From an uncultured bacterium (GTDB lineage Bacteria; Zhuqueibacterota; QNDG01; CAYUAG01): a DNA stretch of 64,000 nt. The DNA is taken from positions 464 to 64,463 of the forward strand of contig CAYUAG010000001.1 of the NCBI GenBank assembly GCA_964442615.1, in the 5' to 3' direction. Under the pieces are notes generated by a model. The model searched no databases. It saw only the letters and a list, made by a program, of their open reading frames with translations, and had not been told where the DNA came from. The position numbers and the translations under genes were made by a program. Position 1 is the stretch's first letter. Each line of letters opens with the position of its first letter. Positions 1 through 54,791 of this stretch are shown piece after piece.

Positions 1-2235
1 TACAGGCCATGCTATCAAATTGGCAAGAATAATCCATCGGATTAGTGTGCCGGATAATAATAAGGTCACGCTGCCTGTGGAAGCACCCATAACCTTGCGT
101 ATACCAATCTCCTTTGTTTTGACTTCAGCCATAAATGCCGCCAATCCCAGAATACCCAAAGAAGCGACAAATATGGAGAGCGCTGAGAATATTATAAAGA
201 TGTTCTGCATCTTCCTTTCCCGCTCATAAAGTTGTTGAATGCGTTCATCGAGGAAATTAAATTCAAATTGCTCACCGGGAAATGTGTTCTCCTAGGTGTT
301 CCGGAGGTACGTTAGGGATTCCCGGATATCGCCTGGTTTGACTCGAACTGATATCGTGTTAATCCATTCAAAATTTAATATCAAAGCCATAGGTTCCACT
401 ATCGTATGCATGGACTTGAGGTGAAAATTTTTTACCACACCCACGACCCGGCCTATGTCGCCCCTGCCATACACCAGTTCCTTTCCGACTGCTTCATCGG
501 GTGTCCAGCCAATACGACGTACTGCTGCTTCATTCAATATAAGTGTCCCGGAGGTATCAGAACTGAAATTTCTGGAAAAGGTGCGTCCCTTTTGCATCTC
601 CATCCGGTATGTCTCAACAAAATCGTGATCCGCACCGAGAATAAGCATGCTGATGGTTTCTTCGGAATTCAGTCGAGTCTGAAAACCAGTCGTGCTGAAA
701 AAAGTTTCCCCTGGTACATCTGAAGATCTGGCAACCGAAAGAACCTGTGGATTCTTTAATAATTCAGTACGATAGACTTCATAATTCTGAGCCATTTCTC
801 GGCTTTGAACAGAGACCAGTACAATATTTTCTTTTTCAAAACCTAAAGACCGGTTCTGGATGTATTGCATTTGTCTGTACACTGTAAACATCCCGATAAT
901 TAACGCAATAGAAATGCCGAATTGAATAATCACCATGTTTCTTTTGAAGCCTGATCTTCCTTTACCCGAAACAGGAGTGCCTCGTAAAATATCTGCTGGT
1001 TCGTATCGCGTTAATTGAAAAGCGGGATAGATACCAGCAAGAAAACCAACGATAAGCGTTGTCACGATTAAAATGCAGATATTTTTTATTTGAAACAGAT
1101 AAGAGAGTGATAGACTCTCATGAAAGATTCGTTCATAGGCTGGTATCAGCAGTATATCTAAAACAAGGGCTAACAGTAAGGCAAGGAAGGCTAAAAGCAT
1201 GGATTCCTGAATGAACTGTCCCCTGAGCTGCATGAGCCCCGCACCCACGGTTTTACGCAGACTGACTTCCCTGGCCCGTTTGCTGGACCTGGCTGTTGAG
1301 AGATTCACAAAATTAATGCAGGCGATTATAAGGATGAGTAAAGCAACCGAAGAGAATATATAAACAGATGCTATGTTTCCTCCTGCCTCAATCTCCCAAT
1401 TTTCACTGGGATTAAGATGAATACTGGTAATAGGGAAAAGATTCATCTTCAGCACTTCATGAATACCGAATCCCTGGGCCAATAGATCCCCGTAATGGGC
1501 TTCAAGATGACGAGTGACAAATGTTTTTAATTTACTCTCAAGGCTTGATCTCGAAGTGCCTTTCTGAGCCAGGACATAGGTGTATAGATAGTTACTTCTC
1601 CAACTGGTAAACCTGTCTTCCGGATAGGAAGAAATTGACATCAGCATATCGAAATGGATATGGGAGTTTTCCGGCACCTCTTTCAGAATGCCTGTCACTT
1701 TAAAATCCACTGGTTCTCCATTGAATTCAAGATTGAGGGATTTACCAATAACATTTTCGGTACCCAAAAATTTTAATGCCTTCTCTCGCGTGAGCACCAC
1801 TGTTTTCGGTTCGGTTAGTGCTGTCTGTTCATCACCCTCCTCCAGATCGAAATCGAAAATGTCGAAGATGGCGTTATCCACTGCAAAAAGTTCCTGTCGA
1901 TGATTGAAATTATTTTGATCCTTGATGTTTGTTACTCTTCGCCATACGCGTGTTGCATTTTCAATTTCAGAATAATCATCAATTAATGCCTGTTTGTATT
2001 GTCCACCAACGATAGGCCAACGGCTGTAAACATTATCACGGAACAGTTCCCGTTCAATGCGATAAATCCGTTGAGCATTATTATGGAAGCGGTCATAACT
2101 GGATTCTCTCTGTACCCAGAGACTGATGATGGTACAAATGGCCAGCCCGATAGCCAGACCGAAAAGATTTATGAAAGAAAATAATTTGTTTCTGACGAAA
2201 TGACGATAGGCAATTTTTAAATAATTTTTAAACAT
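1..2235 (-). pseudogene. MacB/FtsX-family ABC transporter permease, interrupted by an in-frame TAG (292..294); the C-terminal end runs off the left edge
   Basis: The 647-aa ORF 292..2235 has the N-terminal TM, MacB-type periplasmic domain and first FtsX TM bundle. It is paralogous to ORF 2751..5144 (both start MFKNYLKIA.R). Hand translation of the minus strand below 292 continues in the same frame: ENTFPGEQFEFNFLDERIQQLYE...KTKEIGIRKVMGAS...IRWIILANLIAWPV. This aligns to the C-terminal FtsX domain of the paralog. Confidence 0.75.
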
Positions 2236-2278
2236 GATTTCTCTCCTTAGAGCGTTCAGATTTCAGCATTCAGCTTCC

Positions 2279-2345
2279 GTGAAACGTCAAATGTGAAAAG
2301 TATAGGGGGTATGGGCTGTTTGACTTCTCACATTTGACATCTCAC
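2279..2345 (-). repeat. Intercistronic hairpin (GTGARA/GTCAAA word family), copy B
   Basis: Arm 2279..2300 (gtgaaacgtcaaatgtgaaaag) pairs with arm 2324..2345 (cttctcacatttgacatctcac). That gives 19 Watson-Crick pairs. The 3 remaining positions are A.C/C.A on the plus strand but U.G/G.U on the minus (mRNA) strand. The loop is 23 nt. Confidence 0.8.
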
Positions 2346-2384
2346 TTTTTCAATCTCCATTGTTCATTGATCACAGAACAATGA

Positions 2385-2663
2385 TCATTGTTGATTAACT
2401 GCCATTACCGTTTTTTTACGAAACATGATGGGAATATTGGTGTCGGAAGGGGCTCCGATATTGATGAGCTCCCAGTTTTTATCATATTCTCTTATCACTC
2501 GTCTGAGAATATCAACTCTTTCTTCTGTATCTGGCTCTTTACTCTCCCATTCTACAATCTCAACCCGGTATTTCAAGGTTCTTTTTTTTCCATTAATCTT
2601 TACATCAATTTCGATATTTTGTTTGGCTTCAAGACTGGGAATTTGGAGAACAACTTCTCGCAT
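2385..2663 (-). CDS. Hypothetical small protein (92 aa), family not recognised
   Basis: ORF with a strong SD: the minus strand reads AAGGAGGctaacATG. It lies between two hairpin repeats, between the two permease genes. Confidence 0.55.
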   Translation of the reverse strand: MREVVLQIPSLEAKQNIEIDVKINGKKRTLKYRVEIVEWESKEPDTEERVDILRRVIREYDKNWELINIGAPSDTNIPIMFRKKTVMAVNQQ

Positions 2664-2692
2664 GTTAGCCTCCTTTTTATATTTTTAGTGAT

Positions 2693-2747
2693 CAGCCTTC
2701 AGTAGTCAGTAGTCAGCTTACTCAACCCCTCTGAATGCTGACGGCTG
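2693..2747 (-). repeat. Intercistronic imperfect hairpin (TCAGC/TCAGT word flavour)
   Basis: cagccttcagtagtcagtagtcag (2693..2716) pairs with ctgaatgctgacggctg (2731..2747). About 14 of 17 positions pair, and the word tagtcag is duplicated in one arm. Confidence 0.5.
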
Positions 2748-2750
2748 TTT

Positions 2751-5144
2751 TCATTCATACCTCAAACTCTCCACTGGATTGGCCCGGGCGGCTTTAAACG
2801 CTTGATACCAAACGGTCAGTAGAGCAACACACAAAGCGATAAGACCGGAAAGCAGAAAACTCACCACACCAATGTTGACCTGGTAGGCATAAGAGATCAG
2901 TACTTGTTTCATTAGAAAGTAGCCAAGCGGCCAGGCAATAAGGTTAGCAATCAGTACCCAGCGTATAAATTCCTGACTGAGAAGTAAAATTAGCTTTGAT
3001 ACAGGTGCGCCTAATACTTTCCGAACACCTATTTCCTTGGTTCTTCGCTCTATCATGAAAGATGACAGTCCGAAAAGTCCCAGGCAGGATATGACAATAG
3101 CCAACAGTGTAAAGGTGTTAAAAATCTGGCTGGCCTTCACTTCTTTGGCATACAGCTGGTCGTAGGTTTCATCCACAAAGTGAAACTCAAAAGGCGAAAT
3201 GGGATTAACGGATTTCCACACGTTTCTAACAGCAGCGATACCCTTAGTGATTTTTCCGGATTGTATTCTAATCAGCACGATTCCGCCACTGGTGGCATGG
3301 GACATGTCTGTTATAAAAAAGATCCTGTTATTGATTTTTTGATGGAGTGATTGAAAATTGGCATCCTTAGCTATCCCAATGATTTTCGTAAGGCGGTCAT
3401 CGGAAAGTTTAAACCATTTCCCCAGGGGTGATTCCAGTCCCATGTCCCGGATTGCTGATTGGTTCAGGATCACACTCTCTCTGGCATCCGAGGATATCTC
3501 TTCTGAGAAAGTTCGACCCTCTACAATATCGAGTCCAAGTGTCTTGAAAAAATCATACCCCACACCTGAAAGTACTAGATCGAGATGACGCTCCCGTTTT
3601 GGATCTCTGCCTTCCCATTCCCAGCCCGCTCCTCTCCAGGTATCTGTTAAACCCATGTATTGGGCAGATACAGAAACGATCTCAGGATGGGTGAGCAGTT
3701 CATTTTTCATGGTTTTGTATTGAGTGCCCACATTCTCCTTAATAGGCAGATAAATGACATTTTTTTTGTTGAATCCCAGGTTTTGGTTTTGAATATAATG
3801 AAATTGTTTATAGATGATCAAGGTTCCGAAAATGAGTAGGATGGATATAGCGAATTGAAAAACAACCAATATTTTCCGGAATAGAGATCCACGCTTATCG
3901 GATAATTGAGAGCCCCGAAATAAAACCAGAGGCTTAAATCCCGAGAGAAAAAAAGCGGGATAACATCCTGAGAGAAGTCCAGTTATAATAATTATAACTG
4001 CAAAACCTGTCAGAAAAGAAATATCGAGAGGATTTATTCTGAGTGATTTATCAGCCAGTTGATTGAAATAGGGGAGCAAAACCATGACCAGACCTAAAGC
4101 AATCAAACCGGCAATGAGTGTGAAAACCATTGATTCAGCAAAAAATTGCCGTACCAATTGAATACGATGGGCTCCTATAGTTTTTCTCATGCCAATTTCT
4201 TTTGATCGGAGAGCGGATCGGGCCGTAGACAGATTCATGAAATTTACACACGCAATGGCCAATACAAAACCGGCAATCACAGAGAACAGTAATACCATCT
4301 TTCGGTCACCTAAAATGCGCCATTGGATATTCCAATCCCGGGCAGTTAAATACACGTCCGACAGCGGTTGAAGCCAAAATGTAAGCCCCTTGGATATCTG
4401 CCAGCACTCATTACGTTTGCCGATTTCGGTCATTTTTTTTCCAAGTAATTGAAGGTCGCTGTTCTCCCAGAGGAGCACATAAGTGGTAAAGTTGAAAGCA
4501 TTCCAGGAGGTACCATAATTATAGGTCCATTCACCCATGTCCTCCATGAATGTAAAGGAACTCACAAAGTCAAATTGCAGGTGTGAATTTCTGGGGATAT
4601 CCTGAATCACACCGGTTATGGTAACCGGACGTCCCTCAACCAGTATTGTCTTACCCATGGGATCTTCATTTCCAAAATATTTACACCCAAAGGATTCCGT
4701 GATGACCATATCCGCAGGATTCTGAAAGGCTGATTCCAAATCACCTTTGATGAAGGGAAAAGTGAAAATCTCAAACAGGGATGGATCGGCCATAATGCCT
4801 TTTTCTTCATAAAAACGGGTATCCTTATATTTAAATACTAGTCGTGCATGGGAGGCAACCCGAGCCGCATGGACAATTTCAGGGAGTTCTTTTTGCATTG
4901 CGGGAGCCAGCGGTGCCGGGGTGATTTCCAGACCCTCCCATCCATTCCTCTTCCAGTCGCTCACCACGCGATAGATGTGATCTTTTTTTTCATGGAATTG
5001 ATCAAAGCTAAGTTCGTCTTGAACCCAGATTAGGATAAAGATACAGACAGCTATTCCTACTCCCAAACCCAGGATATTGATAAAGGAATAGCCTTTGTGC
5101 CGCAGGAGGTTTCTTAAAGCAATTTTCAGATAATTTTTGAACAT
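2751..5144 (-). CDS. MacB/FtsX-family ABC transporter permease (797 aa)
   Basis: Full-length ORF with N-terminal TM, a large periplasmic domain and two FtsX-type TM bundles. It has the RTKEIGVRKVLGA and earlier SKEIGMRKTIGA motifs typical of MacB-like permeases. Confidence 0.9.
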   Translation of the reverse strand: MFKNYLKIALRNLLRHKGYSFINILGLGVGIAVCIFILIWVQDELSFDQFHEKKDHIYRVVSDWKRNGWEGLEITPAPLAPAMQKELPEIVHAARVASHARLVFKYKDTRFYEEKGIMADPSLFEIFTFPFIKGDLESAFQNPADMVITESFGCKYFGNEDPMGKTILVEGRPVTITGVIQDIPRNSHLQFDFVSSFTFMEDMGEWTYNYGTSWNAFNFTTYVLLWENSDLQLLGKKMTEIGKRNECWQISKGLTFWLQPLSDVYLTARDWNIQWRILGDRKMVLLFSVIAGFVLAIACVNFMNLSTARSALRSKEIGMRKTIGAHRIQLVRQFFAESMVFTLIAGLIALGLVMVLLPYFNQLADKSLRINPLDISFLTGFAVIIIITGLLSGCYPAFFLSGFKPLVLFRGSQLSDKRGSLFRKILVVFQFAISILLIFGTLIIYKQFHYIQNQNLGFNKKNVIYLPIKENVGTQYKTMKNELLTHPEIVSVSAQYMGLTDTWRGAGWEWEGRDPKRERHLDLVLSGVGYDFFKTLGLDIVEGRTFSEEISSDARESVILNQSAIRDMGLESPLGKWFKLSDDRLTKIIGIAKDANFQSLHQKINNRIFFITDMSHATSGGIVLIRIQSGKITKGIAAVRNVWKSVNPISPFEFHFVDETYDQLYAKEVKASQIFNTFTLLAIVISCLGLFGLSSFMIERRTKEIGVRKVLGAPVSKLILLLSQEFIRWVLIANLIAWPLGYFLMKQVLISYAYQVNIGVVSFLLSGLIALCVALLTVWYQAFKAARANPVESLRYE

Positions 5145-5198
5145 ATTTTTTCCCTCATTAGCTCTCAGCTTTCAGCATTTAGCGGGCAGCTTTATTTA

Positions 5199-5273
5199 GT
5201 GAAATGTCAAACGTGAGACGTGAGAAGGATGGTAGCAGATGGGTCGTTTGACTTCTCACTTTTCACATTTCAT
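5199..5273 (-). repeat. Intercistronic hairpin (GTGARA/GTCAAA word family), copy A
   Basis: Arms 5199..5227 and 5245..5273 pair at about 22 of 29 positions in one register. Alternative perfect 8-bp registers exist (gtcaaacg/cgtttgac and gtgagaag/cttctcac). The core atgggtcgtttgacttctcac (5239..5259) is nearly identical to 2311..2331. Confidence 0.7.
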
Positions 5274-5279
5274 CATTGA

Positions 5280-5951
5280 TCATTCCTCCTTCTCAATCCA
5301 CCCATCCTTCAAATGGATAATCCGGTTTCCATATTTTGCTTTTTCCTCGGAATGGGTAACCTGGAGGATGGTCATGCCTTCCTCTTTGTTTAATTTTTTT
5401 AAAAGCTCCATAATTTCTTTTCCCTGCTGGGAGTTAAGATTCCCGGTAGGCTCATCCGCCAGTAAAAGGTTTGGCCGGATAATCAAGGCCCGGGCTACAG
5501 CAGTCAACTGCTGCTGACCTCCAGAGAGCTGATTAGGGAAGAGATTTTTTTTAGCAACAATATTGAATCGGTCCAGCACCTCTGCTACCAATCCTTTTCT
5601 TTCCGAAGTTTTAACTTTTTTATATAACAGAGGAGTCTCCAGATTTTCATATACGGTCATCTCATCAATAAGATGGTACTGCTGAAAAATGAATCCTATA
5701 TGCTGATGATGAAGACCGGTTCGCTGTTTTTCTTTTAAGGAATGGACAGGCTCATCAAAAAAATAGTATTCACCTTCTGAGGCAGTATCCAGCATACCCA
5801 GAATATATAAAAGTGTTGATTTTCCTGCACCTGACGGACCCATTATAGTGATAAACTCACCTTCCTTAATATCCAGATTGATTTGTCGTAAAACAAAGGT
5901 TTTAATAAATTTATTAGAATAATATTTGGTAATATCTCTTAATTTAATCAT
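5280..5951 (-). CDS. ABC transporter ATP-binding protein (MacB/LolD-like)
   Basis: Walker A GPSGAGKST, signature LSGGQQQ, Walker [14 protein letters not shown]-loop VTHS. Confidence 0.95.
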   Translation of the reverse strand: MIKLRDITKYYSNKFIKTFVLRQINLDIKEGEFITIMGPSGAGKSTLLYILGMLDTASEGEYYFFDEPVHSLKEKQRTGLHHQHIGFIFQQYHLIDEMTVYENLETPLLYKKVKTSERKGLVAEVLDRFNIVAKKNLFPNQLSGGQQQLTAVARALIIRPNLLLADEPTGNLNSQQGKEIMELLKKLNKEEGMTILQVTHSEEKAKYGNRIIHLKDGWIEKEE

Positions 5952-5966
5952 CTTTTACCTCAATTT

Positions 5967-6185
5967 TTATTTTTTTGATGTTACTTTAAATAAAACAGCT
6001 CCCAGATATCCAGATTCGTTTATTTCAGCTATGTATAAACCAGGTTGATAGTGAGCTTTTGTTTTTAATTTTGTTTCTGATAGAGTATTTAATAGACTTG
6101 CAGGTGTAAAAGAACCCTCAGTACTGCTTAACAGTAATCTTTGATGGTTTTTTACAAGTCCGGTTAATACATTTTTTAAGGTCAT
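5967..6185 (-). CDS. Hypothetical small protein (72 aa)
   Basis: ORF preceded on the minus strand by AAAGGAGaaatcaccATG. It ends 15 nt before the next ATPase gene. No family recognised. Confidence 0.4.
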   Translation of the reverse strand: MTLKNVLTGLVKNHQRLLLSSTEGSFTPASLLNTLSETKLKTKAHYQPGLYIAEINESGYLGAVLFKVTSKK

Positions 6186-6251
6186 GGTGATTTCTCCTTT
6201 ATGGTCGGGTGATTACATTGTTTTACAAATTTTAATTTTTTTTTGACCTTT

Positions 6252-6370
6252 AATGTCATAAGTGAAATGTGAGATGTGAGAAGTGAGAGATTTGCACTTC
6301 CCATTCAACTGAACTGGATCTTCTTGGATTTACTTTTTTTACATTTCATGTCTGACATTTCACTTCTCAC
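6252..6370 (-). repeat. Intercistronic hairpin (GTGARA word family), copy C
   Basis: aagtgaaatgtgagatgtgagaagtgagag (left arm) pairs with acatttcatgtctgacatttcacttctcac (right arm). There is an 11-bp perfect block plus about 10 of 15 further positions. The loop is about 50 nt. Confidence 0.6.
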
Positions 6371-7060
6371 TTATACATGAAATTTATCTTTGAAATTCTC
6401 AGTTACAATATGCCCATCAAAAAGATGAATCAATCTTTGGGCATAATCTGCATAGGCTGGTGAGTGGGTTACCATAAGAATCGTAGTTCCTTCTTTATGA
6501 AGATCAGTTACCAATTTCATAACTTCTTCTCCATGGGAGGAATCCAGGTTTCCGGTCGGTTCATCAGCAAGTATAAGTTTGGGGTCGCTGACAATTGCTC
6601 TGCTTACCGCTACCCGTTGCTGCTGTCCCCCGGAGAGCTGCTGAGGAAAGTGGCTTCTTCGGTGCATCATTTTCATTCTTTCTAGGACATTATGTACTTT
6701 TTTCTTTCTTTCTGAAGCTGAAACTCCAAGATAGAGAAGAGGAAGTTCAACATTTTCATACACAGTGAGTTCATCGATGAGGTTAAAACTCTGGAATACA
6801 AATCCGATGTTGTTTTTCCTCAGATTGGCCCGTTTTCTCTCATTATATCCGGATATTTCCTCTCCCAGAAAATGGTATTCCCCTTCTGTCGGATTGTCCA
6901 GCATTCCCAACACATTCAGAAGTGTGGATTTGCCGCATCCCGAGGGTCCCATAATGGATACAAATTCGCCCTCTTTGATCTCAAGATTCACATTATTCAA
7001 AGCAGTTGTTTCTACTTCTTCAGTCAGGTATACTTTTTTTAAGTTTTTGGTTTTAATCAT
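6371..7060 (-). CDS. ABC transporter ATP-binding protein (MacB/LolD-like), paralog of 5280..5951
   Basis: Walker [10 protein letters not shown], signature LSGGQQQR, Walker [13 protein letters not shown]-loop VTHS. Confidence 0.95.
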
Positions 7061-7132
7061 TTTGTGATCCTTTCATTTATTATTAATTTTATATGATTTA
7101 TATTGTGAAACGTCAAAAGTTATAAGTCAAAA

Positions 7133-7611
7133 GTCAAATGTCAAACGTGAGAAAAAACCGTAACACCTCATTATATAGTACTTTTTATTAGTTTTGAAAG
7201 TGAAGCAAAAAGATGATTCATTTGTTTACTAATTTTATCTAAATCTTCCTGTCTACAATAGGTTAAATCAAGTGCAATTTCTAATTGTGTATCCAGTTCC
7301 GCTAATGATGATCTTGAAATTTCATAAAACCTTCTCCGTTCATTGCTGGAACTTCTTGCTGAGCCCTCTGCGATATTCGAAGGAATGGAAACAGCGCTTC
7401 TCCTGATTTGTGAAATTAAATTGTACATTTCTTTTGTTGGAAATTTTTCAGTTAATTCATATATTTTTATGACAAACTCCATTGCTAACTTCCAAACCTT
7501 TAATTTTTTATGTTTTAATTCGAGCATCTCATCTCCTGTAAAAACATTTTTCTGTTTTTGTTTATATACTTGCTGTCTTTTACCACTCACTTCTCACATC
7601 TCACATTTGAC
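7133..7611 (-). repeat. Inverted-repeat stem (arms 7133..7157 and 7587..7611) enclosing the four-helix-bundle ORF
   Basis: Hand alignment of gtcaaatgtcaaacgtgagaaaaaa against the reverse complement of 7587..7611 (gtcaaatgtgagatgtgagaagtga) covers 25 positions. There are 19 Watson-Crick pairs and 2 mismatches. The other 4 positions are U.G/G.U only on the minus strand. Confidence 0.6.
7171..7527 (-). CDS. Four-helix-bundle protein (23S rRNA intervening-sequence protein / Avd-like family)
   Basis: The motif KFPTKEMYNLISQIRRSAVSIPSNIAEGSARSSSNERRRFYEISRSSLAELDTQLEIA is characteristic of this family. The start is placed at MLELKHKKLKVW (7527), which has AGGAGAtgagATG upstream. The track's longer ORF (to 7590) would read through the repeat arm. 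Confidence 0.8.
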   Translation of the reverse strand: MLELKHKKLKVWKLAMEFVIKIYELTEKFPTKEMYNLISQIRRSAVSIPSNIAEGSARSSSNERRRFYEISRSSLAELDTQLEIALDLTYCRQEDLDKISKQMNHLFASLSKLIKSTI

Positions 7612-7614
7612 CTT

Positions 7615-8865
7615 TTACTTCAAAATCAACTTATCAACATCCCCGAAAGTGTCATAAGAAGAGGTGATAACTTTATCACCAGGTTTCAGTCCTTCCAAAA
7701 CAGTAAATACTTCCGGGTTTTTCCGCCCTAGCCGGAGGGGATGTTTTACAGCAAATGATTCTGATTCATCCAGAATGTATACCCATTGACCTCCTGTAGT
7801 TTGGTAAAATCCCCCTTGAGGAAGAAGAATTGCTTCTTCTAGATTCCCAAGTTCAAGTCGAATATGTAAAGTTTGACCTCTGCGAATTCCTTCAGCTAAT
7901 TCGTTTAGAAAAACCAGATCAACATCAAAGCGTCCTTCGCTGACTTCTGGAAAAACCTTGTTAACTTTAAGCTTATATGTGTTTCCTGCAAAGGAAAAAC
8001 TTCCGTATTTCCCTTCTTCCACTCTGGCAATGTAGTGCTCATCAATCTCACACCTGACTTTTAAACTGTCAAGTACATCAATACGACCCAGTGATTCTCC
8101 GCGACTTTTGGTAGAGCCAATCTCAGCATCCAGAGATGTAAGCATGCCGTCAATAGGAGTTCGAATGGTTAAAGCTTCCTCTCTTTTTTGAACAATGGTC
8201 AAATTCTTTTCCATTTGTGCAACAGATAATTCCAGCTGTTTTATTTGATTTTCTCTAAACAAGGAGTCCTGTTGCATAGATTCAAGAGTAAGTTCCTTAG
8301 ATTTCAGGGAATATTCATACTCATCTTTTATTAATTCATATTCTTCTTTGGATATAAGATTTTGTTCATAAAGCTTTTGTGCTCTTTTGTATTCTCTTTC
8401 TTGTTTTAGGAGATTAAATTTAATTTCTATGAGTTGTCTTTTAAGCAGTAATTTATTTTGTTCCATATAAAGACGAGTGGAACGTAAATCATTAGCAGCC
8501 CTGTTCACCTGGGCTTGATTGTTTAATATGGTCAGAAGTAGATTTGTATTGGACATTCTTACAATGGGATCACCTTTTTTCACCGATGTACCTGCTTCGA
8601 TAATTCTTTCTTCCACTACACCTCCTTCCGTGGCGCTCAGAGTATATCTTTTAATAGGAACAACTGTACCCTGAGTTGGAATATATTCCTGGAATTCGCC
8701 TTTATAAACGGTTGATATAGTAATTCTTTCAGTATTTATATTATATTTAGAACTTTTATCTCCAAATATAATCATATAGAGAATCAAGAGAAAAAATGCG
8801 GAGGGTATGACGACCTTTGCTATGTTTTTTAAGGTAAACCGTTTTTTTTCAATTTTTTTATCCAT
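7615..8865 (-). CDS. HlyD-family periplasmic adaptor (membrane fusion protein) of the ABC efflux system
   Basis: N-terminal TM anchor, long coiled-coil segment (QLELSVAQMEKNL...), then barrel-sandwich and beta-barrel regions. It is the first gene of the operon with the ABC ATPases and MacB-like permeases. Confidence 0.85.
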   Translation of the reverse strand: MDKKIEKKRFTLKNIAKVVIPSAFFLLILYMIIFGDKSSKYNINTERITISTVYKGEFQEYIPTQGTVVPIKRYTLSATEGGVVEERIIEAGTSVKKGDPIVRMSNTNLLLTILNNQAQVNRAANDLRSTRLYMEQNKLLLKRQLIEIKFNLLKQEREYKRAQKLYEQNLISKEEYELIKDEYEYSLKSKELTLESMQQDSLFRENQIKQLELSVAQMEKNLTIVQKREEALTIRTPIDGMLTSLDAEIGSTKSRGESLGRIDVLDSLKVRCEIDEHYIARVEEGKYGSFSFAGNTYKLKVNKVFPEVSEGRFDVDLVFLNELAEGIRRGQTLHIRLELGNLEEAILLPQGGFYQTTGGQWVYILDESESFAVKHPLRLGRKNPEVFTVLEGLKPGDKVITSSYDTFGDVDKLILK

Positions 8866-8918: not shown

Positions 8919-8934
8919 CGCAAGAAGCATACCA
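8919..8934 (-). promoter_or_regulatory. Candidate sigma-54 (-24/-12) promoter of the efflux operon
   Basis: The minus strand reads TGGTATGCTTCTTGCG. GG and GC have the canonical TGGCAC-N5-TTGC spacing. It lies about 55-70 nt upstream of the HlyD start codon and faces away from a sigma-54 activator gene. Confidence 0.6.
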
Positions 8935-9178: not shown

Positions 9179-10555
9179 ATGAGTGAAAAGATTGGTAAAA
9201 TTCTTTTTATCGATGATAATGAGGATATACTGCAGGCTGCTCGGCTCTTTTTAAGACAGCATATGGCTGTTGTCCATACTGAGAAGAATCCAGAAATGAT
9301 TCCTTCCCTACTTAAACATGAGGATTATGATGTCATATTACTGGACATGAATTTTACTCAGGATGTTACCAGCGGTAAAGAGGGTTTTCTGTGGCTGGAG
9401 AAGATACTTGAAATTGATCCCTGGGCAGTTGTTGTTATGATAACAGCCTATGGAGATGTTGAGATGGCTGTACGTGCCATTAAAGCTGGAGCAATAGATT
9501 TTGTCTTGAAACCTTGGCACAATGAAAAGCTGCTTGCAACTATCTCAGCAGCTGTGAAATTAAGGCATTCCCGTACCGAACTTGATAGTCTACGTTCTCT
9601 TCAAAAACAATTGAGCGCAGACATGGATCAACCTTTCCATGATTTCATTGGCCAAAGTCCAGCTATGGAAGATGTATTTAAAACCATAAGAAAAGTAGCA
9701 AAAACAGATGCCAATGTTCTTATTCTGGGAGAAAATGGAACTGGCAAGGAGTTGGTTGCCAGGGCACTCCACCGGGAATCAAAACGGTGTAATAAAGTAT
9801 TTATCAGTGTGGATATGGGAGCTATTAGTGAAACTTTGTTTGAAAGTGAACTATTTGGTCATGTAAAGGGTGCTTTTACTGATGCCAAGTCAGATAGGGC
9901 TGGTCGTTTTGAAGTAGCCTCTGGGGGCACTCTTTTTCTTGATGAAATTGGAAATCTATCCAAGACTCTTCAAAGTAAACTTCTTACTGTATTGGAAAAC
10001 AGAAAAGTAATACGGTTGGGTTCACATAAACCAATTTCAATTGATATACGTCTTGTTTGTGCTACTAATAAATCCATTAGTGAAATGGTTACCAGGCAGG
10101 AGTTCAGACAGGATTTGCTGTATCGGATAAATACAGTGGAAATAAATCTACCCCCACTTCGTCACCGGAGAGAGGATATTCTACTGCTTGCAGAACATTT
10201 TTTAAAGATTTACTGCGAAAAGTATGATATGCTACCCAAAAAAATAAATAGTGAGACAAGAAGAAAAATGGAACAATATAAATGGCCTGGAAATGTAAGG
10301 GAACTGCAGCATGCTATTGAAAGAGCAGTTATAATGAGTGAGAATAAGACCTTGAAACCCTCTGATATCCTGCTTTCTATACCCAACAGTAAGAGTGAGG
10401 AATTATCTCTGGATAACTTAAAAATTGAAGAGATTGAGAAATTAGCTATTCAAAGATCGATTAAAAAATACAAAGGCAACATTTCAAGAGCTGCCAAGGA
10501 ATTAGGATTGACCAGGATTTCTCTCTATCGTAGACTGGAGAAATATGGAATATAA
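9179..10555 (+). CDS. Sigma-54-dependent response regulator (NtrC family: REC, AAA+, Fis-type HTH)
   Basis: REC domain (DDNEDIL...LLDMNF), Walker A GENGTGKE, GAFTDA (a GAFTGA variant), ESELFGH, and C-terminal HTH ISRAAKELGLTRISLYRRLEKYGI. Confidence 0.95.
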   Translation: MSEKIGKILFIDDNEDILQAARLFLRQHMAVVHTEKNPEMIPSLLKHEDYDVILLDMNFTQDVTSGKEGFLWLEKILEIDPWAVVVMITAYGDVEMAVRAIKAGAIDFVLKPWHNEKLLATISAAVKLRHSRTELDSLRSLQKQLSADMDQPFHDFIGQSPAMEDVFKTIRKVAKTDANVLILGENGTGKELVARALHRESKRCNKVFISVDMGAISETLFESELFGHVKGAFTDAKSDRAGRFEVASGGTLFLDEIGNLSKTLQSKLLTVLENRKVIRLGSHKPISIDIRLVCATNKSISEMVTRQEFRQDLLYRINTVEINLPPLRHRREDILLLAEHFLKIYCEKYDMLPKKINSETRRKMEQYKWPGNVRELQHAIERAVIMSENKTLKPSDILLSIPNSKSEELSLDNLKIEEIEKLAIQRSIKKYKGNISRAAKELGLTRISLYRRLEKYGI

Positions 10556-11942
10556 ATATTTTAAAACATTTTTAGTCATACGGGTACTCAGCCTTTGTCT
10601 TTTTATTTGGATATTTTTTTTATTACTTTTCAAAACAGGGAATTATATATTTGTTGGTTTAATTGGATTTTTAATTTTTTACCAAACCTATAGCCTTATC
10701 CATTATGTAGAAAAGACAAATAGAGAGCTCGCCCGTTTTCTGGATGCCATACGATATGAAGATTTTTCCTGTTCTTTTAAGCAAAGTGGAAAAAAATCAA
10801 CATTCAATATACTTTCTCGAGCGTTCTCAGGTATTATTGATGAAATAAAGAGATACCGAACTAAAACAGAAGAGCATTACCAATATTTACAAACAGTAGT
10901 TCAGCATATCGGTATAGGTATTATTTCTTTTCAGCAGGATGGAAAAGTAGGATTTATTAATAGTGCAGCTTTAAAACTGTTAGGCTTAAGCAAATTGAAA
11001 AATATTCATGATCTCAAAGAGTTAGAACCCAGCTTTACAGATATTCTTATTAAGTTAGAAAATGGTGAACACATACTTGTTCCGCTTTATATCGCTTCAA
11101 AAAATTTTTTGTTTTCAATTCATACCACCAAATTCCGCATGCAGGGAAAAAAGATAACATTAATATCAATACAAGATATAAAAATACAGTTAGAACAGGA
11201 ACGCGCAGCCAAGGAACTGGAGGTTGCTCATCAGGTACAAACTGAACTCTTGCCTAAAGATCATCCTAATATCCCTAATATTGATATAGCTGGATTCTGT
11301 AAGCCCGCTCAGGAAATAGGGGGTGACTATTATGATTATATTTCAATTGATTCTGATAAAATTGGTATTGTCATTGCCGATGTTTCAGGAAAAGGGCTCC
11401 CTGCTGCAATCTACATGACTTTAACCAAAGGTATTCTTCAATCAAAAGCAGAGGAAATTAGCTCACCTAAAGCTGTGTTAACAAAAGTCAATAGATTGCT
11501 TTATCAATCACTATGGCGTGATTCTTTTGTTACCATGTTTTATGGTGTGCTTAATGTAAAAAATAACAAGTTTATCTATGCCCGAGCAGGTCATAATCCT
11601 CCCATCCATCTAAACAGTAAAAATGATTCATTCTCATTTCTGGAATCAAAAGGAATTGCTTTAGGTTTGACAGATGAAAGAGAGTTCACAAAAACAATTG
11701 AAGAAAAACAGTGCGATTTAAATTCAAATGATTTGATTGTTTTGTATACGGATGGTTTTACTGAAGCAATGGATAAGAATAGTAATGTATTTGGGGAAAA
11801 AAGATTGTTTGATTTAATTTTAAATAACCGGGATAAAACCTGTGAAGAATTGATAAAAATTATTTACAAGGAAGTCAGTCTATTCACCGGGGAATATCTT
11901 GAACATGATGATATGACCATGGTCTCAGTTAAAATAGCTTAA
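10545..11942 (+). CDS. Membrane sensor with C-terminal PP2C/SpoIIE-type serine phosphatase domain
   Basis: Two N-terminal TM helices and a PAS-like region, then GGDYYDY...IADVSGKGLPAAIYM...YTDGFTEA...HDDMTMV. The start overlaps the regulator's stop by 11 nt. Confidence 0.85.
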   Translation: MEYKYFKTFLVIRVLSLCLFIWIFFLLLFKTGNYIFVGLIGFLIFYQTYSLIHYVEKTNRELARFLDAIRYEDFSCSFKQSGKKSTFNILSRAFSGIIDEIKRYRTKTEEHYQYLQTVVQHIGIGIISFQQDGKVGFINSAALKLLGLSKLKNIHDLKELEPSFTDILIKLENGEHILVPLYIASKNFLFSIHTTKFRMQGKKITLISIQDIKIQLEQERAAKELEVAHQVQTELLPKDHPNIPNIDIAGFCKPAQEIGGDYYDYISIDSDKIGIVIADVSGKGLPAAIYMTLTKGILQSKAEEISSPKAVLTKVNRLLYQSLWRDSFVTMFYGVLNVKNNKFIYARAGHNPPIHLNSKNDSFSFLESKGIALGLTDEREFTKTIEEKQCDLNSNDLIVLYTDGFTEAMDKNSNVFGEKRLFDLILNNRDKTCEELIKIIYKEVSLFTGEYLEHDDMTMVSVKIA

Positions 11943-11951
11943 TTAGTATAT

Positions 11952-13304
11952 ATGATTTTTAAAAAATTTCAAATTAATTGTATTTTAAGAGTTTTAATTT
12001 TATCCCTTAGCATATTTTTGTTTGTATATTTAGTTTTTCAGGTAAATCAATATCTGATAGCTGTGTTTGTTGGCAGTATCATTTTGTATCAAATATATTC
12101 TCTTATCCGTTACATTGAAAAAACTAACTATTATCTGATACGATTTTTTGAAGCTGTCAAATATGAAGATTTTTCTCAATCTTTTTCAGGACTGGGTTTA
12201 GGGAAATCATTCGATGAATTGAAAAGATCTTTTAAAGATGTTTTGGAGAAATTTCAACAAACACGTATGGAAAAAGAGGAGCATTTCCGCCGCCTTCAGA
12301 TTGTACTCAATCATATAGGAACAGGATTGCTTTCTTTTCAGGAGGATGGTAGAGTAGATTTGATAAACAATGCTGCTAAACGGTTGTTTCATATGCCACA
12401 TCTGAGGAATATATGTGACCTGTTTACTTTAAGCGAAGATCTCGTTAAGACCTTGATGAATTCGAAACCTGGGGATAAAACCCTGATTAAAGTACATAAT
12501 AAGGATGAGGTGCTCAATTTAAATATTTATTCCACCGAGTTCATACTGAGTAAGAAGTGCTATAAGTTAATTTCCATCCAGAATATTCAAAGTGAATTGG
12601 AAGAGAAGGAAATGGAAGCCTGGCAGAACCTGATCAGGGTACTCACCCATGAAATTATGAATTCAGTAACACCCATTTCCTCTCTGGCCTCAACTGTTAA
12701 TAGTATGTTGATTCAACAATCAGAGAATATACCTAGTAATCAAAATAAATCTATTTCAATAGAAGATATTCAAGCAGCTGTCCAGACTATTGAAAAACGA
12801 AGTGAGGGACTCATTCAGTTTGTGAAGTCGTATAGAAAATTGACACACATCCCTAAACCCGATTTTCAGATTATCTCAGTTTTCTCTTTATTTAAACGTA
12901 TTGAACAGCTTATGGGAACTGATATCAAGAAAAATAGAATACAGTTTATTAAACAAATAAATCCTGAAACTCTTGAACTAACAGCAGACCCGGCTCTTAT
13001 AGAACAGAGTCTAATCAACTTGATGATTAATTCTATGGATGCTCTACACACTGTTAACAAGCCGAAAATCACGCTTAATGCTCAATTAGATGGTAGAAGC
13101 CGAACTATTATTCAAGTCATAGACAATGGCCCTGGAATAGATCCCAATGTTCAAGACCGCATCTTTATTCCTTTCTTTACAACTAAGAAAAAAGGTTCAG
13201 GAATAGGTTTAAGTCTATGCCGTCAGATTATGCGTATACACAAAGGAACTATCAGCATTGATTCAAAACCCAATAGTGCAACCATGATTACTTTAAGATT
13301 TTAA
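11952..13304 (+). CDS. Sensor histidine kinase (2TM, PAS-like, HisKA, HATPase_c)
   Basis: H-box LTHEIMNSVTPI, N-box LINLMINSMDA, G1 DNGPGI, G2 GSGIGLSL. The N-terminal ~200 aa are paralogous to the preceding PP2C sensor. Confidence 0.9.
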   Translation: MIFKKFQINCILRVLILSLSIFLFVYLVFQVNQYLIAVFVGSIILYQIYSLIRYIEKTNYYLIRFFEAVKYEDFSQSFSGLGLGKSFDELKRSFKDVLEKFQQTRMEKEEHFRRLQIVLNHIGTGLLSFQEDGRVDLINNAAKRLFHMPHLRNICDLFTLSEDLVKTLMNSKPGDKTLIKVHNKDEVLNLNIYSTEFILSKKCYKLISIQNIQSELEEKEMEAWQNLIRVLTHEIMNSVTPISSLASTVNSMLIQQSENIPSNQNKSISIEDIQAAVQTIEKRSEGLIQFVKSYRKLTHIPKPDFQIISVFSLFKRIEQLMGTDIKKNRIQFIKQINPETLELTADPALIEQSLINLMINSMDALHTVNKPKITLNAQLDGRSRTIIQVIDNGPGIDPNVQDRIFIPFFTTKKKGSGIGLSLCRQIMRIHKGTISIDSKPNSATMITLRF

Positions 13305-30431: not shown

Positions 30432-30911
30432 TTTTTTCATTTAAGTCCATTTTGAAATTTAACCTGTCTTCACCAAAAATAAAAAATAAATTAATATTTT
30501 AATAAATTATACCATTTTAATTTAAATTTTATAACTACAGATTTTTTTATTTTTCCATGACTGTTTTTTAAATTATTTTCAGGTCTTGTTTGATAGCTGA
30601 CTAAATAAATAAGTGACAGTTTCTTTTGGTTTTATCTAGTTATAGAAAGATAGGTATGGTCTCAGGCACAGATTTCATAATCCTAACAGTCTGCTTAACC
30701 TGACAGAGCTTTTTGTACTAGAGGATGAGTTTTTTTTATGGATAATGTCTATTTAAGAAAAAAATCCTTAAGGCCAAGAGGAGCCCTACTATCTGAGCCT
30801 CTGTAACTATGCAATAATATTTTTAAATGAGACTCATTGATTATAAATTTTGAGTTGATTGAAAGGTTTTAAAAAAAGTATATTAAAATTACACTTGTCA
30901 GAATATTAAAA

Positions 30912-31079
30912 AACCTGCAACCCAACTTTTACTATGCAAGAACTCGTCCAGAAAGGGTGGGTACCCTCCTATACGCTTTTTGTGTCTCTATAACCTTTAG
31001 AGCTTGCAATCCACGCTAGAGCCGAGTTCCCTATTTATAAGTGTTAGCTCTTCATAGTTTCCAGTTGAGGCTGCAGGTT
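30912..31079 (+). ncRNA. Candidate structured small RNA (long closed helix with internal loops; 6S-like shape; identity unknown)
   Basis: The 5' end aacctgcaacccaact pairs with the 3' end agttgaggctgcaggtt (15 bp, one mismatch, one bulge). The helix continues with actatg/catagt and aaga.c/g.tctt. Internal hairpins include agggt-gggt-accct and ctcta-N7-tagag. A possible promoter TTGATT-N18-TATATT lies at 30855..30884. The strand is tentative. Confidence 0.3.
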
Positions 31080-31264
31080 ATTTATAAGATTTCTTATTTT
31101 AATTTGGTAATTTATTTTTTAAAAGTCAAGAGAAGATTTTTTTTGTTAAAAAATAGTTGATTTTTATTGAGAAATTAAGTAATCTTATAAAACAAGTAAA
31201 TTTTTAAAAATATAAGTTTTTTTGAATTTGATTTACAAAAACAATCTGTAAAGAGGTAAAAGTA

Positions 31265-53378: not shown

Positions 53379-53536
53379 CATAAATAATTGCCACTAAGGT
53401 ACTAAGGTCACAAAGAAACTAATGAATAAAAAAAATTATTGTTAAGATTATTTTATTATTTATCATTAAACATCATAAATTCATATTTTACTGATATTTA
53501 GTTTCTTTGAGCCTTGGTGGCTATGATTTATTCAGG
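53379..53536 (+). repeat. Long imperfect hairpin with a stuttered word (ACTAAGGT doubled in one arm)
   Basis: cataaataattgccactaaggtactaaggtcacaaagaaactaa pairs with ttagtttctttgagccttggtggctatgatttattcagg. A 12-bp perfect block (caaagaaactaa) adjoins the loop. The loop is about 75 nt. Confidence 0.6.
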
Positions 53537-53559
53537 TTAGAAAAGTTTATTCATAGGCT

Positions 53560-53740
53560 GAGAATTAATTGCTACTGAGGGTCAATGTGACTTTGTTGAT
53601 AGAAGTTAGAGAATTTTTAACTATAACTAGTAGATAACTTTATTTTTTATATCTCTGAATCTAACTTCTAACTTCTAACTTCTAACTTCTAACTTCTAAC
53701 CTCTAACCTCCAATAACTTAGCAGCAATAATTCATTAATA
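53560..53740 (+). repeat. Second long imperfect hairpin; its 3' arm contains the heptamer array
   Basis: gaattaattgctactgag pairs with cttagcagcaataattc, and gatagaagttagaga pairs with the ctaacttct words. Confidence 0.5.
53661..53709 (+). repeat. Tandem heptamer repeat (CTAACTT x5, CTAACCT x2)
   Basis: Read directly from the sequence: 7 contiguous 7-nt units. Confidence 0.95.
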
Positions 53741-53761: not shown

Positions 53762-54791
53762 ATGAGTATTGCAAGTAGAAAATCTGATCATATTAAAATA
53801 TGCTTGAATGAAGAAGTACAATTTAAAAATAAAACCACTGGATTTGAAGAGTATGATTTTATTCACTGTGCTCTGCCGGAAATGGAATTAAAGGATATTG
53901 ATACTGAAATAGAAATCTTCGGAAGAATTCTCTCATTTCCATTTTTTATAGGGGCTATCACCGGGGGATGGGAGGGTGCATTTGAAATAAACAAATCCCT
54001 TGCTCAGGTGTGTAAAAGAGAGGGAATCGGTTTAGAGGGTGGAAGCCAGAGAAGTATACTTGAAAATGAGAGATATATTGATTCCTACAGAATAATACGA
54101 AAAGAAGCTCCTCATTCATTAGTGATTGGCAATATTGGAGCTGTTCAGACAGTTCAATACCAGAATATTGATGAATTAAAGAGACTTGTAGATGTTATTC
54201 AAGCTGATGCACTCACTGTTTATCTCAATCCTTTACAGGAAGTATTACAATCGTCAAAAGAAGTTAATTTTAAAGGTGTTTTAGAGGGAATTGAAAGACT
54301 GGTGCGTTCTTTAGAAGTTCCCTTGATAGTTAAAGAAGTTGGATCTGGTATATCCACCCAGGTTGCACAAAAACTTGCAGATGTGGGAGTAAAGTATATC
54401 AATATTGCAGGTGCAGGAGGAACATCTTGGGCTGGAGTAGAATCATTTAGGAACAGAAGTGATTTGGCAGAGAGGTTTTGGGATTGGGGAATACCCACGG
54501 CAAAAAGTATTACCATGGTAAAAAAGGTTAAGGTCGTTAACATTATTGCTTCAGGAGGAGTAGCAAATGGACTTGATATGGCAAAAGCATTAGCTCTTGG
54601 TTCCAGAGTGCGGTAGTTCTGCTTTACCCATACTAAAGATATTACATAAAAAGGATAATATGGGAGTTATAAAGATAATTAGACAGTGGAGAAAAGAATT
54701 AAAAATTGCCATGCTTTTAACTGGGAGTAGTAATGTAAATGAGATTATGCGTAAAGGAGTTTTGGAATATATTGGTAATAGATGTGTCTAA
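53762..54791 (+). pseudogene. fni: Type 2 isopentenyl-diphosphate delta-isomerase (IDI-2), frameshifted near 54605
   Basis: ORF 53762..54616 matches IDI-2 through ...IIASGGVANGLDMAKALALGS. The expected continuation ECGSSALPILKIL...WRKELKIAMLLTGSSNVNEI is in the +1 frame (ORF 54597..54791). Removing one nucleotide around 54605 restores a colinear protein. Confidence 0.8.

Follow-up and report, generated by a model that had tools for sequence, protein, structure and literature searches.

The intercistronic gaps of a minus-strand ABC-efflux operon in an uncultured bacterium of the Zhuqueibacterota are probably colonised by strain-variable, selfish elements of the intervening sequence (IVS) type. 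The operon was analysed in a 64,000-nt stretch of DNA, hereafter the window (contig CAYUAG010000001.1, positions 464 to 64,463). It comprises eight open reading frames (ORFs), with an HlyD-type gene first in transcription order and the second permease gene last (Table 1). Central to this reading is the ORF at 7171-7590. The original prediction took it for an ordinary cistron and overlooked that the repeat family carries it: this ORF and its surroundings form a cassette, in which a promoter-less gene for a 23S rRNA intervening-sequence protein (S23p, here IVP) is bracketed by inverted arrays of 7-nt words.

The cargo protein matches PF05635 (E=6.9e-38; score 129.6 bits, family cut-off 33.8), TIGR02436 (E=3.8e-36) and the structure of XCC0516 (PDB 2GSC, E=3.9e-30). 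The segments 7104-7153 and 7585-7620 on either side of its gene are the arms of one terminal inverted repeat that pairs across the gene, with 30 nt (7124-7153/7591-7620) that are 83% complementary. When the cassette is folded as sense RNA, the arms are paired in both the minimum free energy and the centroid structures, and a long stem of roughly 30 bp closes the gene. The cassette has the same orientation as the operon and starts at the first base past the upstream stop codon. Its site is the junction of the HlyD and ABC ATPase genes, not helix 25 or 45 of a 23S rRNA, and an Rfam scan of the window detected no rRNA. Filled and empty sites were compared at the cassette junction alone, and this comparison revealed no target-site duplication. 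No transposase, reverse transcriptase or template/variable repeat pair was noticed nearby, although reverse transcriptases and such repeat pairs were not searched for specifically.

Inverted repeats were present at all the positions at which they had been predicted, and every arm was made of 7-nt words (period 7 in Tandem Repeats Finder). The pair at 7133-7157 and 7587-7611, which had been described as filling gaps, is the exception in kind, being part of the terminal repeat of the cassette; the gaps 7061-7170 and 7591-7614 hold no local hairpin. The proposal that the repeats form one family and are not chance palindromes was borne out, except that there are in fact two families. Type A consists of GTSARA words (degenerate form G1 T2 S3 A4 R5 A6 N7) and includes the cassette arms, the hairpins 6252-6370, 5199-5273 and 2279-2345, and a copy outside the window on an independent JGI contig (L001). 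Type B, with TCAGC in the 5' arm and GCTGA or CTGA in the 3' arm, includes the hairpin 2693-2747, which had been grouped with the GTSARA copies, as well as the unpaired arrays 2251-2276 and 5160-5185; these GCTGAAN arrays come after the GTSARA hairpins. Four successive GTSARAN words were matched four times in the 64 kb, always within this operon, compared with 0.00 expected from 100 shuffles, and no cluster of at least three words per 40 nt was found elsewhere in the window. Within the window, runs and clusters of this word flavour are confined to the operon, as first noticed. A cousin array, (TCTAACT)x6.9, was seen at 53660-53707, in the long gap ahead of the ORF 53762-54616. It is the complement of GTTAGA, one base from GTGAGA, and scattered GTTAGA words occur upstream (53536, 53604); the region 53536-53713 could thus be the degraded remnant of a similar element in plus-strand orientation.

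The two 21-mers that had drawn attention to the family (2311-2331 and 5239-5259) are identical at 19 of 21 positions, and this 21-nt core is common to all three permease-upstream hairpins, that is, 5199-5273, 2279-2345 and the L001 copy. We considered whether these hairpins could be relics of gene duplication. This was rejected because the three permease paralogues are only 32% identical to one another, yet the hairpin core is nearly identical. Such a shared core next to divergent permeases suggests recent spread or homogenisation of the hairpins. The hairpin 6252-6370 begins, like the cassette, at the first base past a stop codon, here that of the ATPase, and the 3' arm of 2693-2747 matches the type-B cassette arm of two related contigs (L235 and L236). 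No site resembling an intrinsic terminator (GC-rich stem and U tract) was found in any gap of the operon; what comes next after the stems is GGAAGC, TAAATA or the like. Searches of the same gaps for internal sigma-70 promoters gave nothing above chance. The ribosome-binding sites of the downstream genes are outside the stems.

Table 1 Features of the operon and of its repeat elements (window coordinates unless stated otherwise)
Feature	Position	Strand	Remarks
Sigma-54-type -24/-12 promoter-like site	8919-8934	-	TGGTATGCTTCTTGCG; ~55 nt upstream of the HlyD start; context only
HlyD-type membrane-fusion protein gene	7615-8865	-	
Cassette 5' arm	7585-7620	-	Sense AAGTAAAAGGTCAAATGTGAGATGTGAGAAGTGAG; begins at, and overlaps, the HlyD stop codon (7615-7617)
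IVP ORF, 118-139 aa	7171-7590	-	From GTG as listed; likely 7171-7527 from ATG
Cargo gene, S23p/IVP, four-helix bundle	7171-7527	-	118 aa from ATG at 7527
Cassette 3' arm	7104-7153	-	Sense TTCTCAC GTTTGAC ATTTGAC TTTTGAC ...; pairs with 7585-7620
ABC ATPase gene	6371-7060	-	
Gene-less GTSARA hairpin	6252-6370	-	Arms ~30 nt, 56 nt between; repeat arms 6255-6286/6341-6374
72-aa ORF	5967-6185	-	
Second ABC ATPase gene	5280-5951	-	
Gene-less GTSARA hairpin	5199-5273	-	Upstream of permease 2751-5144; core GTGAGAAGTCARACRRCCCAT
Unpaired type-B array	5160-5185	-	Sense GCTAAAT GCTGAAA GCTGAGA; directly ahead of the ribosome-binding site of the permease
MacB/FtsX permease gene	2751-5144	-	
Type-B hairpin	2693-2747	-	TCAGC 5' arm; 3' arm CTGACTA CTGACTA CTGAAGG CTGA
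92-aa ORF	2385-2663	-	
Gene-less GTSARA hairpin	2279-2345	-	Upstream of permease 292-2235; arms 2279-2301/2323-2345
Unpaired type-B array	2251-2276	-	GCTGAAT GCTGAAA TCTGAAC in sense
Second permease gene	292-2235	-	
Gene-less GTSARA hairpin outside the window	L001 5455-5555		Upstream of the third permease

Related contigs, fetched through homologs of the ATPase 6371-7060 and of the IVP, showed how quickly the gaps change. The C-terminus of HlyD was identical in all seven HlyD-to-ATPase junctions compared, and what follows it varied. A type-A cassette with GTSARA arms occupies the junction in the window, in L241/L242/L237 (ATPase 96-97% and IVP 81% identical to those of the window), in L244 (81% and 65%) and in L245 (80% and 64%). 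These cassettes differ in the number and order of their words; in L241, for instance, four words make up the 5' arm but nine the 3' arm. In L235 and L236, whose ATPases are 97% and 96% identical to that of the window, the junction is instead filled by a type-B cassette with TCAGC/GCTGA arms, encoding an IVP only 41% identical to the window protein. The junction is empty in L230 (59 nt; ATPase 95%), L238/L239 (36 nt; 94%) and L240 (also 36 nt; 92%). Wherever inserts are present, the base next to the stop codon is their first, and no duplication of the target is visible.

The next gap, between the ATPase and the 72-aa ORF, is variable too. The window has a type-A hairpin there, and L230, L235, L236 and L237/L242 have one of type B; in L238 a direct GTGARA x4 array is all that is present, and in L240 the gap measures 25 nt. 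Hairpins also stand at the same permease-upstream positions in L230 and L238. Among more distant orthologous operons, L231 (ATPase 86%) is devoid of heptamer hairpins, and the gaps are short in L234 (2-23 nt; ATPase 85%), L244 (32-34 nt) and L203 (14 nt; 54% G+C). Since the gaps vary in close relatives and are short or free of hairpins in distant operons, the elements are dispensable, lineage-restricted and fast-changing, while the adjacent genes remain 92-97% identical. The hairpins are therefore not the built-in feature of the operon that they had been taken for: the same gaps are empty, differently filled or very short in relatives. We also examined whether the flavour of a gene-less hairpin follows that of the neighbouring cassette. 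The window (A with A) and L235/L236 (B with B) fit this rule, but L242/L237, with a type-A cassette and a type-B hairpin, contradict it.

Two further observations concern the gaps of these relatives. The 15 nt that separate the 72-aa gene from the second ATPase in the window are replaced in L230 by an unrelated structured insert of 186 nt (11054-11239), which folds at about -45 kcal/mol on either strand and contains no heptamer words. L244 encodes a HicA/HicB-like toxin-antitoxin pair (8211-8619) between a small ORF and the permease, as well as an AbiEii gene (11276-11977) after the permease; in this case, the gaps of the operon type attract other selfish modules as well.

The architecture is not limited to this lineage. 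We surveyed 80 loci (L122-L201) from GTDB species representatives, encoding relatives 43-63% identical to the window IVP, in phyla that include Bacteroidota, Planctomycetota, Nitrospirota, Desulfobacterota, Patescibacteria and Proteobacteria. Enough flanking sequence was available for 78 of them, giving 79 testable genes with the copy of the window. Flanking inverted repeats beyond every shuffle control were found for 60 of these 79 genes, versus 4 of 72 random ORFs of 100-160 aa taken from the same loci. At least two of these four control ORFs, and probably three, are further IVP paralogues, which leaves about 1 in 72. The period of the arms was 7 nt in 46 cassettes, 8 nt in 13 and 9 nt in one, so that multiples of three are almost absent, and the word sequence varies between genomes. 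GTSARA words are nevertheless retained in IVP relatives as far as 63-65% identity (L122, L244 and L245).

G outnumbers C in the 5' arm of 57 of the 60 cassettes. The gene upstream has the same orientation in 50 of 58 cases, and in 33 of these 50 no more than about 12 nt lie between its stop codon and the start of the 5' arm. The strand-specific features are the G-rich 5' arm and the alignment with the direction of transcription; for cassettes, both would follow from having to express a gene that lacks a promoter. The presence of stop codons in all three frames, tried as the reason for polarity and period, amounts to a tendency only: such stops occur in 22 of the 60 5' arms (about 5 expected from composition) and in 10 of the 60 3' arms, and type-B elements have their stop-rich array on the 3' side. 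The idea that word flavour tracks IVP phylogeny was also set aside, the correlation being weak (Spearman -0.145; 6 of 2000 permutations). Gene-less hairpins with the same or related words are present in the surveyed loci, and in L161, L174, L175, L193 and L195 they share their words with the nearby cassette. Their polarity relative to the flanking genes in other genomes was the same in five cases and opposite in two, which is too few to judge. A crude motif search found conserved 23S rRNA motifs at none of the 80 loci, and no prior description of IVP cassettes outside rRNA was found in the literature searched, where the nearest account was that of TAACTGA heptamer repeats (PMC4679880).

Two side observations concern heptamer arrays. 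At L137 (5684-6742), a pair of inverted heptamer arrays surrounds a 136-aa ORF whose N-terminal sequence looks PIN/VapC-like by eye; such arrays may bracket cargo other than IVP. In viral contigs of IMG/VR (L002-L121), at least 120 stretches match GTSARAN x4. Most are plain direct heptamer microsatellites with words such as GGTCAGA, AGTGAAA or CCTTTGA, some reaching 13 words in about 330 nt; the DNA fetched for these stretches contained no IVP-like ORF.

The original prediction had argued for a function at the RNA level from a helix that is continuous in the transcript only. This holds for the copy 2279-2345, where 23 bp pair without a break on the minus strand (the mRNA strand) alone, and the fold of its gap is stronger in sense (-46.6 kcal/mol for 2236-2384) than in antisense (-40.0 kcal/mol). 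It does not extend to the family, as the antisense strand folds better in two of the three other local hairpins: sense and antisense values were -27.7 and -33.2 kcal/mol for the gap 5145-5279, and -30.3 and -43.9 kcal/mol for 6186-6370. The same was true of four of the five hairpin-bearing gaps of L230. Relative to shuffled sequences, folding was strongest in gap 2236-2384 (z-score -4.9), followed by 6186-6370 (-3.2) and 2664-2750 (-2.7), while gap 5145-5279 could not be distinguished from shuffles by folding alone (-1.4 to -1.5). None of the operon's hairpins matched any family among the Rfam covariance models.

The wobble compensation that had been proposed did not generalise either. Over the 60 cassette stems, the non-Watson-Crick positions comprised 79 G.U, 96 A.C and 107 other mismatches on the sense strand, and nothing in these counts indicates that the sense transcript is under wobble-tolerant selection. 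Wobble asymmetry as evidence for an RNA-level function was thus rejected, given that G.U does not exceed A.C and that most copies fold equally well or better in antisense, a result that the original prediction had itself named as refuting. Covariation among copies was modest: seven aligned permease-upstream hairpins gave 17 consensus pairs, with 90% of cells paired and three pairs showing compensatory changes, and a score of 0.204 versus 0.157 in shuffles that was reached by 7 of 500 of these. Covariation of this kind cannot separate RNA pairing from DNA pairing or from the reuse of words.

IVSs that encode S23p are found in 23S rRNA genes, in helix 45 in Coxiella burnetii and also in Leptospira and Brucella. 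Those of Salmonella, Yersinia and Campylobacter lack an ORF and are extended hairpins of about 90-150 nt that are excised by RNase III. The window cassette has the protein family of the former in its loop, with a terminal stem of similar length (~28-30 bp), and its gene-less companions are likened to the latter by form and size, again alongside ORF-bearing elements. The differences lie in location and company: the cassette is in a protein-coding operon, inserted at the first base after a stop codon, and is accompanied by several gene-less copies in adjacent gaps, and the hairpins too lie in operon gaps instead of rRNA. The ORF-less IVSs are, moreover, not known to have a heptamer period. In the Coxiella IVS, a 28-bp stem of terminal inverted repeats closes the S23p ORF, and tandem heptamers (GACAGAT), two in some strains and three in others, are present at the 5' end (PMC4990558). 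Cassettes of the window type similarly have terminal tandem heptamers in strain-variable number and no promoter of their own. RNase III from both Coxiella and E. coli cleaves the Coxiella IVS in vitro at the first repeat, and that IVS is considered selfish (PMC4990558).

Other repeats resemble the elements in part. Repetitive extragenic palindromes (REP) and their mosaics (BIME) are palindromic units of 20-40 nt with a conserved head and a cognate transposase (RAYT). Like these and miniature inverted-repeat transposable elements (MITEs), the window hairpins are short imperfect palindromes in intercistronic gaps and vary between strains; unlike them, they have units of 70-120 nt, arms with a 7-nt period, no visible target-site duplication and, in the full-length form, a cargo that is not a transposase. 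No RAYT gene was seen in the 64-kb window, which is only part of the genome. TAACTGA heptamer repeats, described in Beggiatoaceae, Cyanobacteria and Bacteroidetes, are direct, intergenic and located upstream of start codons, with almost no inverted partners and no described link to IVP genes (MacGregor 2015, PMC4679880). They resemble the forward arrays of CTGA-core heptamers found near start codons in the window (2251-2276, 5160-5185 and 2699-2716), and in both systems arrays are missing from the same intergenic region of close relatives and change in 7-nt steps. The window words are different, however (GCTGAAN/CTGACTA), and most of the arrays here are paired into hairpins. Finally, the cargo shares its fold class, the pentameric four-helix bundle (2GSC), with the accessory protein Avd of diversity-generating retroelements, and gave matches far below the family cut-offs to bAvd (PF22296, E=8e-4) and NF033474 (E=1.6e-5).

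Taken as IVS-type elements, the inserts would be transcribed passively from the sigma-54 promoter of the operon. Their arms would pair in RNA, in stems of roughly 16-30 bp, some with internal loops, and fold the insert away, such that the upstream stop codon and the downstream ribosome-binding site remain close and free. RNase III would cut the stems as in rRNA IVSs, thereby breaking up the polycistronic mRNA and setting free a short loop or the IVP message. As to the gene-less hairpins, they would be derivatives of the cassette arms. The RNase III-type fate suggested originally is still the most plausible one by analogy with Coxiella, and we give it about an even chance, although the wobble argument behind it fails.

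Several points weigh against this interpretation. Cleavage by RNase III is proposed here by analogy alone, and in sense RNA the stems of both 5199-5273 and 6252-6370 contain interruptions and pair less strongly than in antisense. Mobility is suggested solely by presence, absence and replacement, with no target-site duplication, transposase or reverse transcriptase found at the places examined, and allelic exchange by homologous recombination between strains could give the same pattern. Moreover, because the closest IVP homologs all occupy the same site, the HlyD-to-ATPase junction, the type-A cassette may have been passed on vertically at this site for a long time, and the variation would then reflect loss and not gain. 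As GTSARA-type arrays also exist in the viral stretches without an IVP gene, the cassette origin of the hairpins is something that we infer, and the weak covariation of the seven permease-upstream hairpins leaves room for some selection on pairing.

That last point touches the view from which the analysis started, namely, that the hairpins are purpose-built cis-regulatory RNAs (for processing, stability or decoupling) that set the stoichiometry of the ATPases, permeases and small proteins. Their presence in nearly every gap, in one orientation relative to transcription, is what such a function would lead one to see, as are their persistence at the permease-upstream positions of L230 and L238, the paired cells and three compensatory pairs of the alignment, and the perfect sense-only helix of 2279-2345. 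Yet orthologous operons have gaps of 2-34 nt and no hairpins (L234, L244 and L203), gap content is swapped wholesale between strains whose ATPases are 96-97% identical, most copies fold equally well or better in antisense, G.U is not in excess of A.C, and the ribosome-binding sites lie outside the stems. We therefore consider purpose-built regulators unlikely, and hold a later, domesticated regulatory role of the hairpins to be just as doubtful.

The gene-less hairpins could also be unrelated to the cassette and belong to REP/BIME- or MITE-type repeats, mobilised by a transposase encoded elsewhere and sharing only low-complexity words with it. The hairpins are indeed intergenic palindromes within an operon and polymorphic for presence, heptamer arrays do occur without IVP genes in viral contigs, and in L242/L237 the flavour of the hairpin is independent of that of the cassette. 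This explanation seems quite improbable given that the cassette arms and all gene-less GTSARA copies use the same word, GTSARAN, with the same 5'-G-rich polarity, that hairpin words match the nearby cassette at five of the surveyed loci, that the one junction compared with an empty site has no target-site duplication, and that none of the gaps contains a terminator-like site. Least probable of all is that the arrays are slippage-prone simple-sequence repeats (contingency loci) tuning the downstream genes, the hairpins being incidental. Word number and order do differ between close strains (nine versus four words in L241; direct GTGARA x4 in L238), Coxiella strains differ by one heptamer (PMC4990558), and TAACTGA-type arrays precede start codons in other phyla (PMC4679880); however, the two arrays pair in inverted orientation much more often than chance would allow, and specifically around IVP genes, and they lie upstream of ribosome-binding sites, not between promoter elements or in coding frames.

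Colonisation by selfish IVS-type elements thus remains the reading that we favour. An IVS-type element in mRNA operons, with gene-less derivatives and an architecture shared across phyla (inverted arrays of 7-8-nt words, a G-rich 5' arm, a position right after the stop codon of a co-oriented gene), appears to be undescribed in the literature searched. With two cassette types and empty sites at one junction in near-identical strains, the IVS question becomes testable outside the ribosome. For annotation, such long intercistronic hairpins should not be counted as operon-specific regulators, and a small "cistron" between their arms is cargo that does not belong to the pathway.

PF05635/TIGR02436 is a very large protein family for which a structure has been solved but, to our knowledge, no function established, and IVSs have been unexplained since 1990. 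A broader proposal, which we regard as speculative and rather unlikely, is that S23p/IVP genes and inverted heptamer arrays together form widespread, unrecognised, autonomous intercistronic cassettes, of which the rRNA IVS is one special case. These would target the position directly after the stop codons of transcribed genes, and their period of 7 or 8 nt, not being a multiple of three, would place stops in all three frames. The heptamer words would be the recognition code of a cognate pentameric IVP ring, and this Avd-like ring might recruit a reverse transcriptase or nuclease in trans, thereby driving the spread of cassettes and gene-less hairpins. If true, this would provide a first function for the family and a new mechanism of mobility.

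A sigma-54 activator gene is encoded divergently at 9179-10555. Neither Pfam nor NCBIfam gave a match for the 92-aa and 72-aa ORFs, but these are conserved partners in this operon type (L230, L236 and L238); the former is also encoded in L203, and an ORF of 92 aa is called at the matching position of a 29.6-kb JGI contig. Both appear to be real small genes and not repeat cargo. The JGI contig L001 is 99.98% identical to the window across 5,286 shared bases and continues past window position 1, where a fifth GTSARA copy stands close to the window edge, upstream of the third permease gene.

The second permease is apparently interrupted near position 290: the listed ORF has 647 aa, a CCTAGG motif is present there (285-295), and the ORF calls place a separate FtsX piece of 127 aa directly downstream of the break. 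The sequence is identical in the independent contig L001, whereas the L230 ortholog is intact (790 aa). The break is possibly a pseudogene or a programmed event. Elsewhere in the window, a 6S RNA (RF00013) at 30908-31082 on the minus strand was the only Rfam match at gathering level (53.3 bits, E=8.7e-8). Finally, a record named "candidate division KSB1 bacterium 4572_119" contains an IVP with 66% identity to that of the window and probably also the ATPase (80%).

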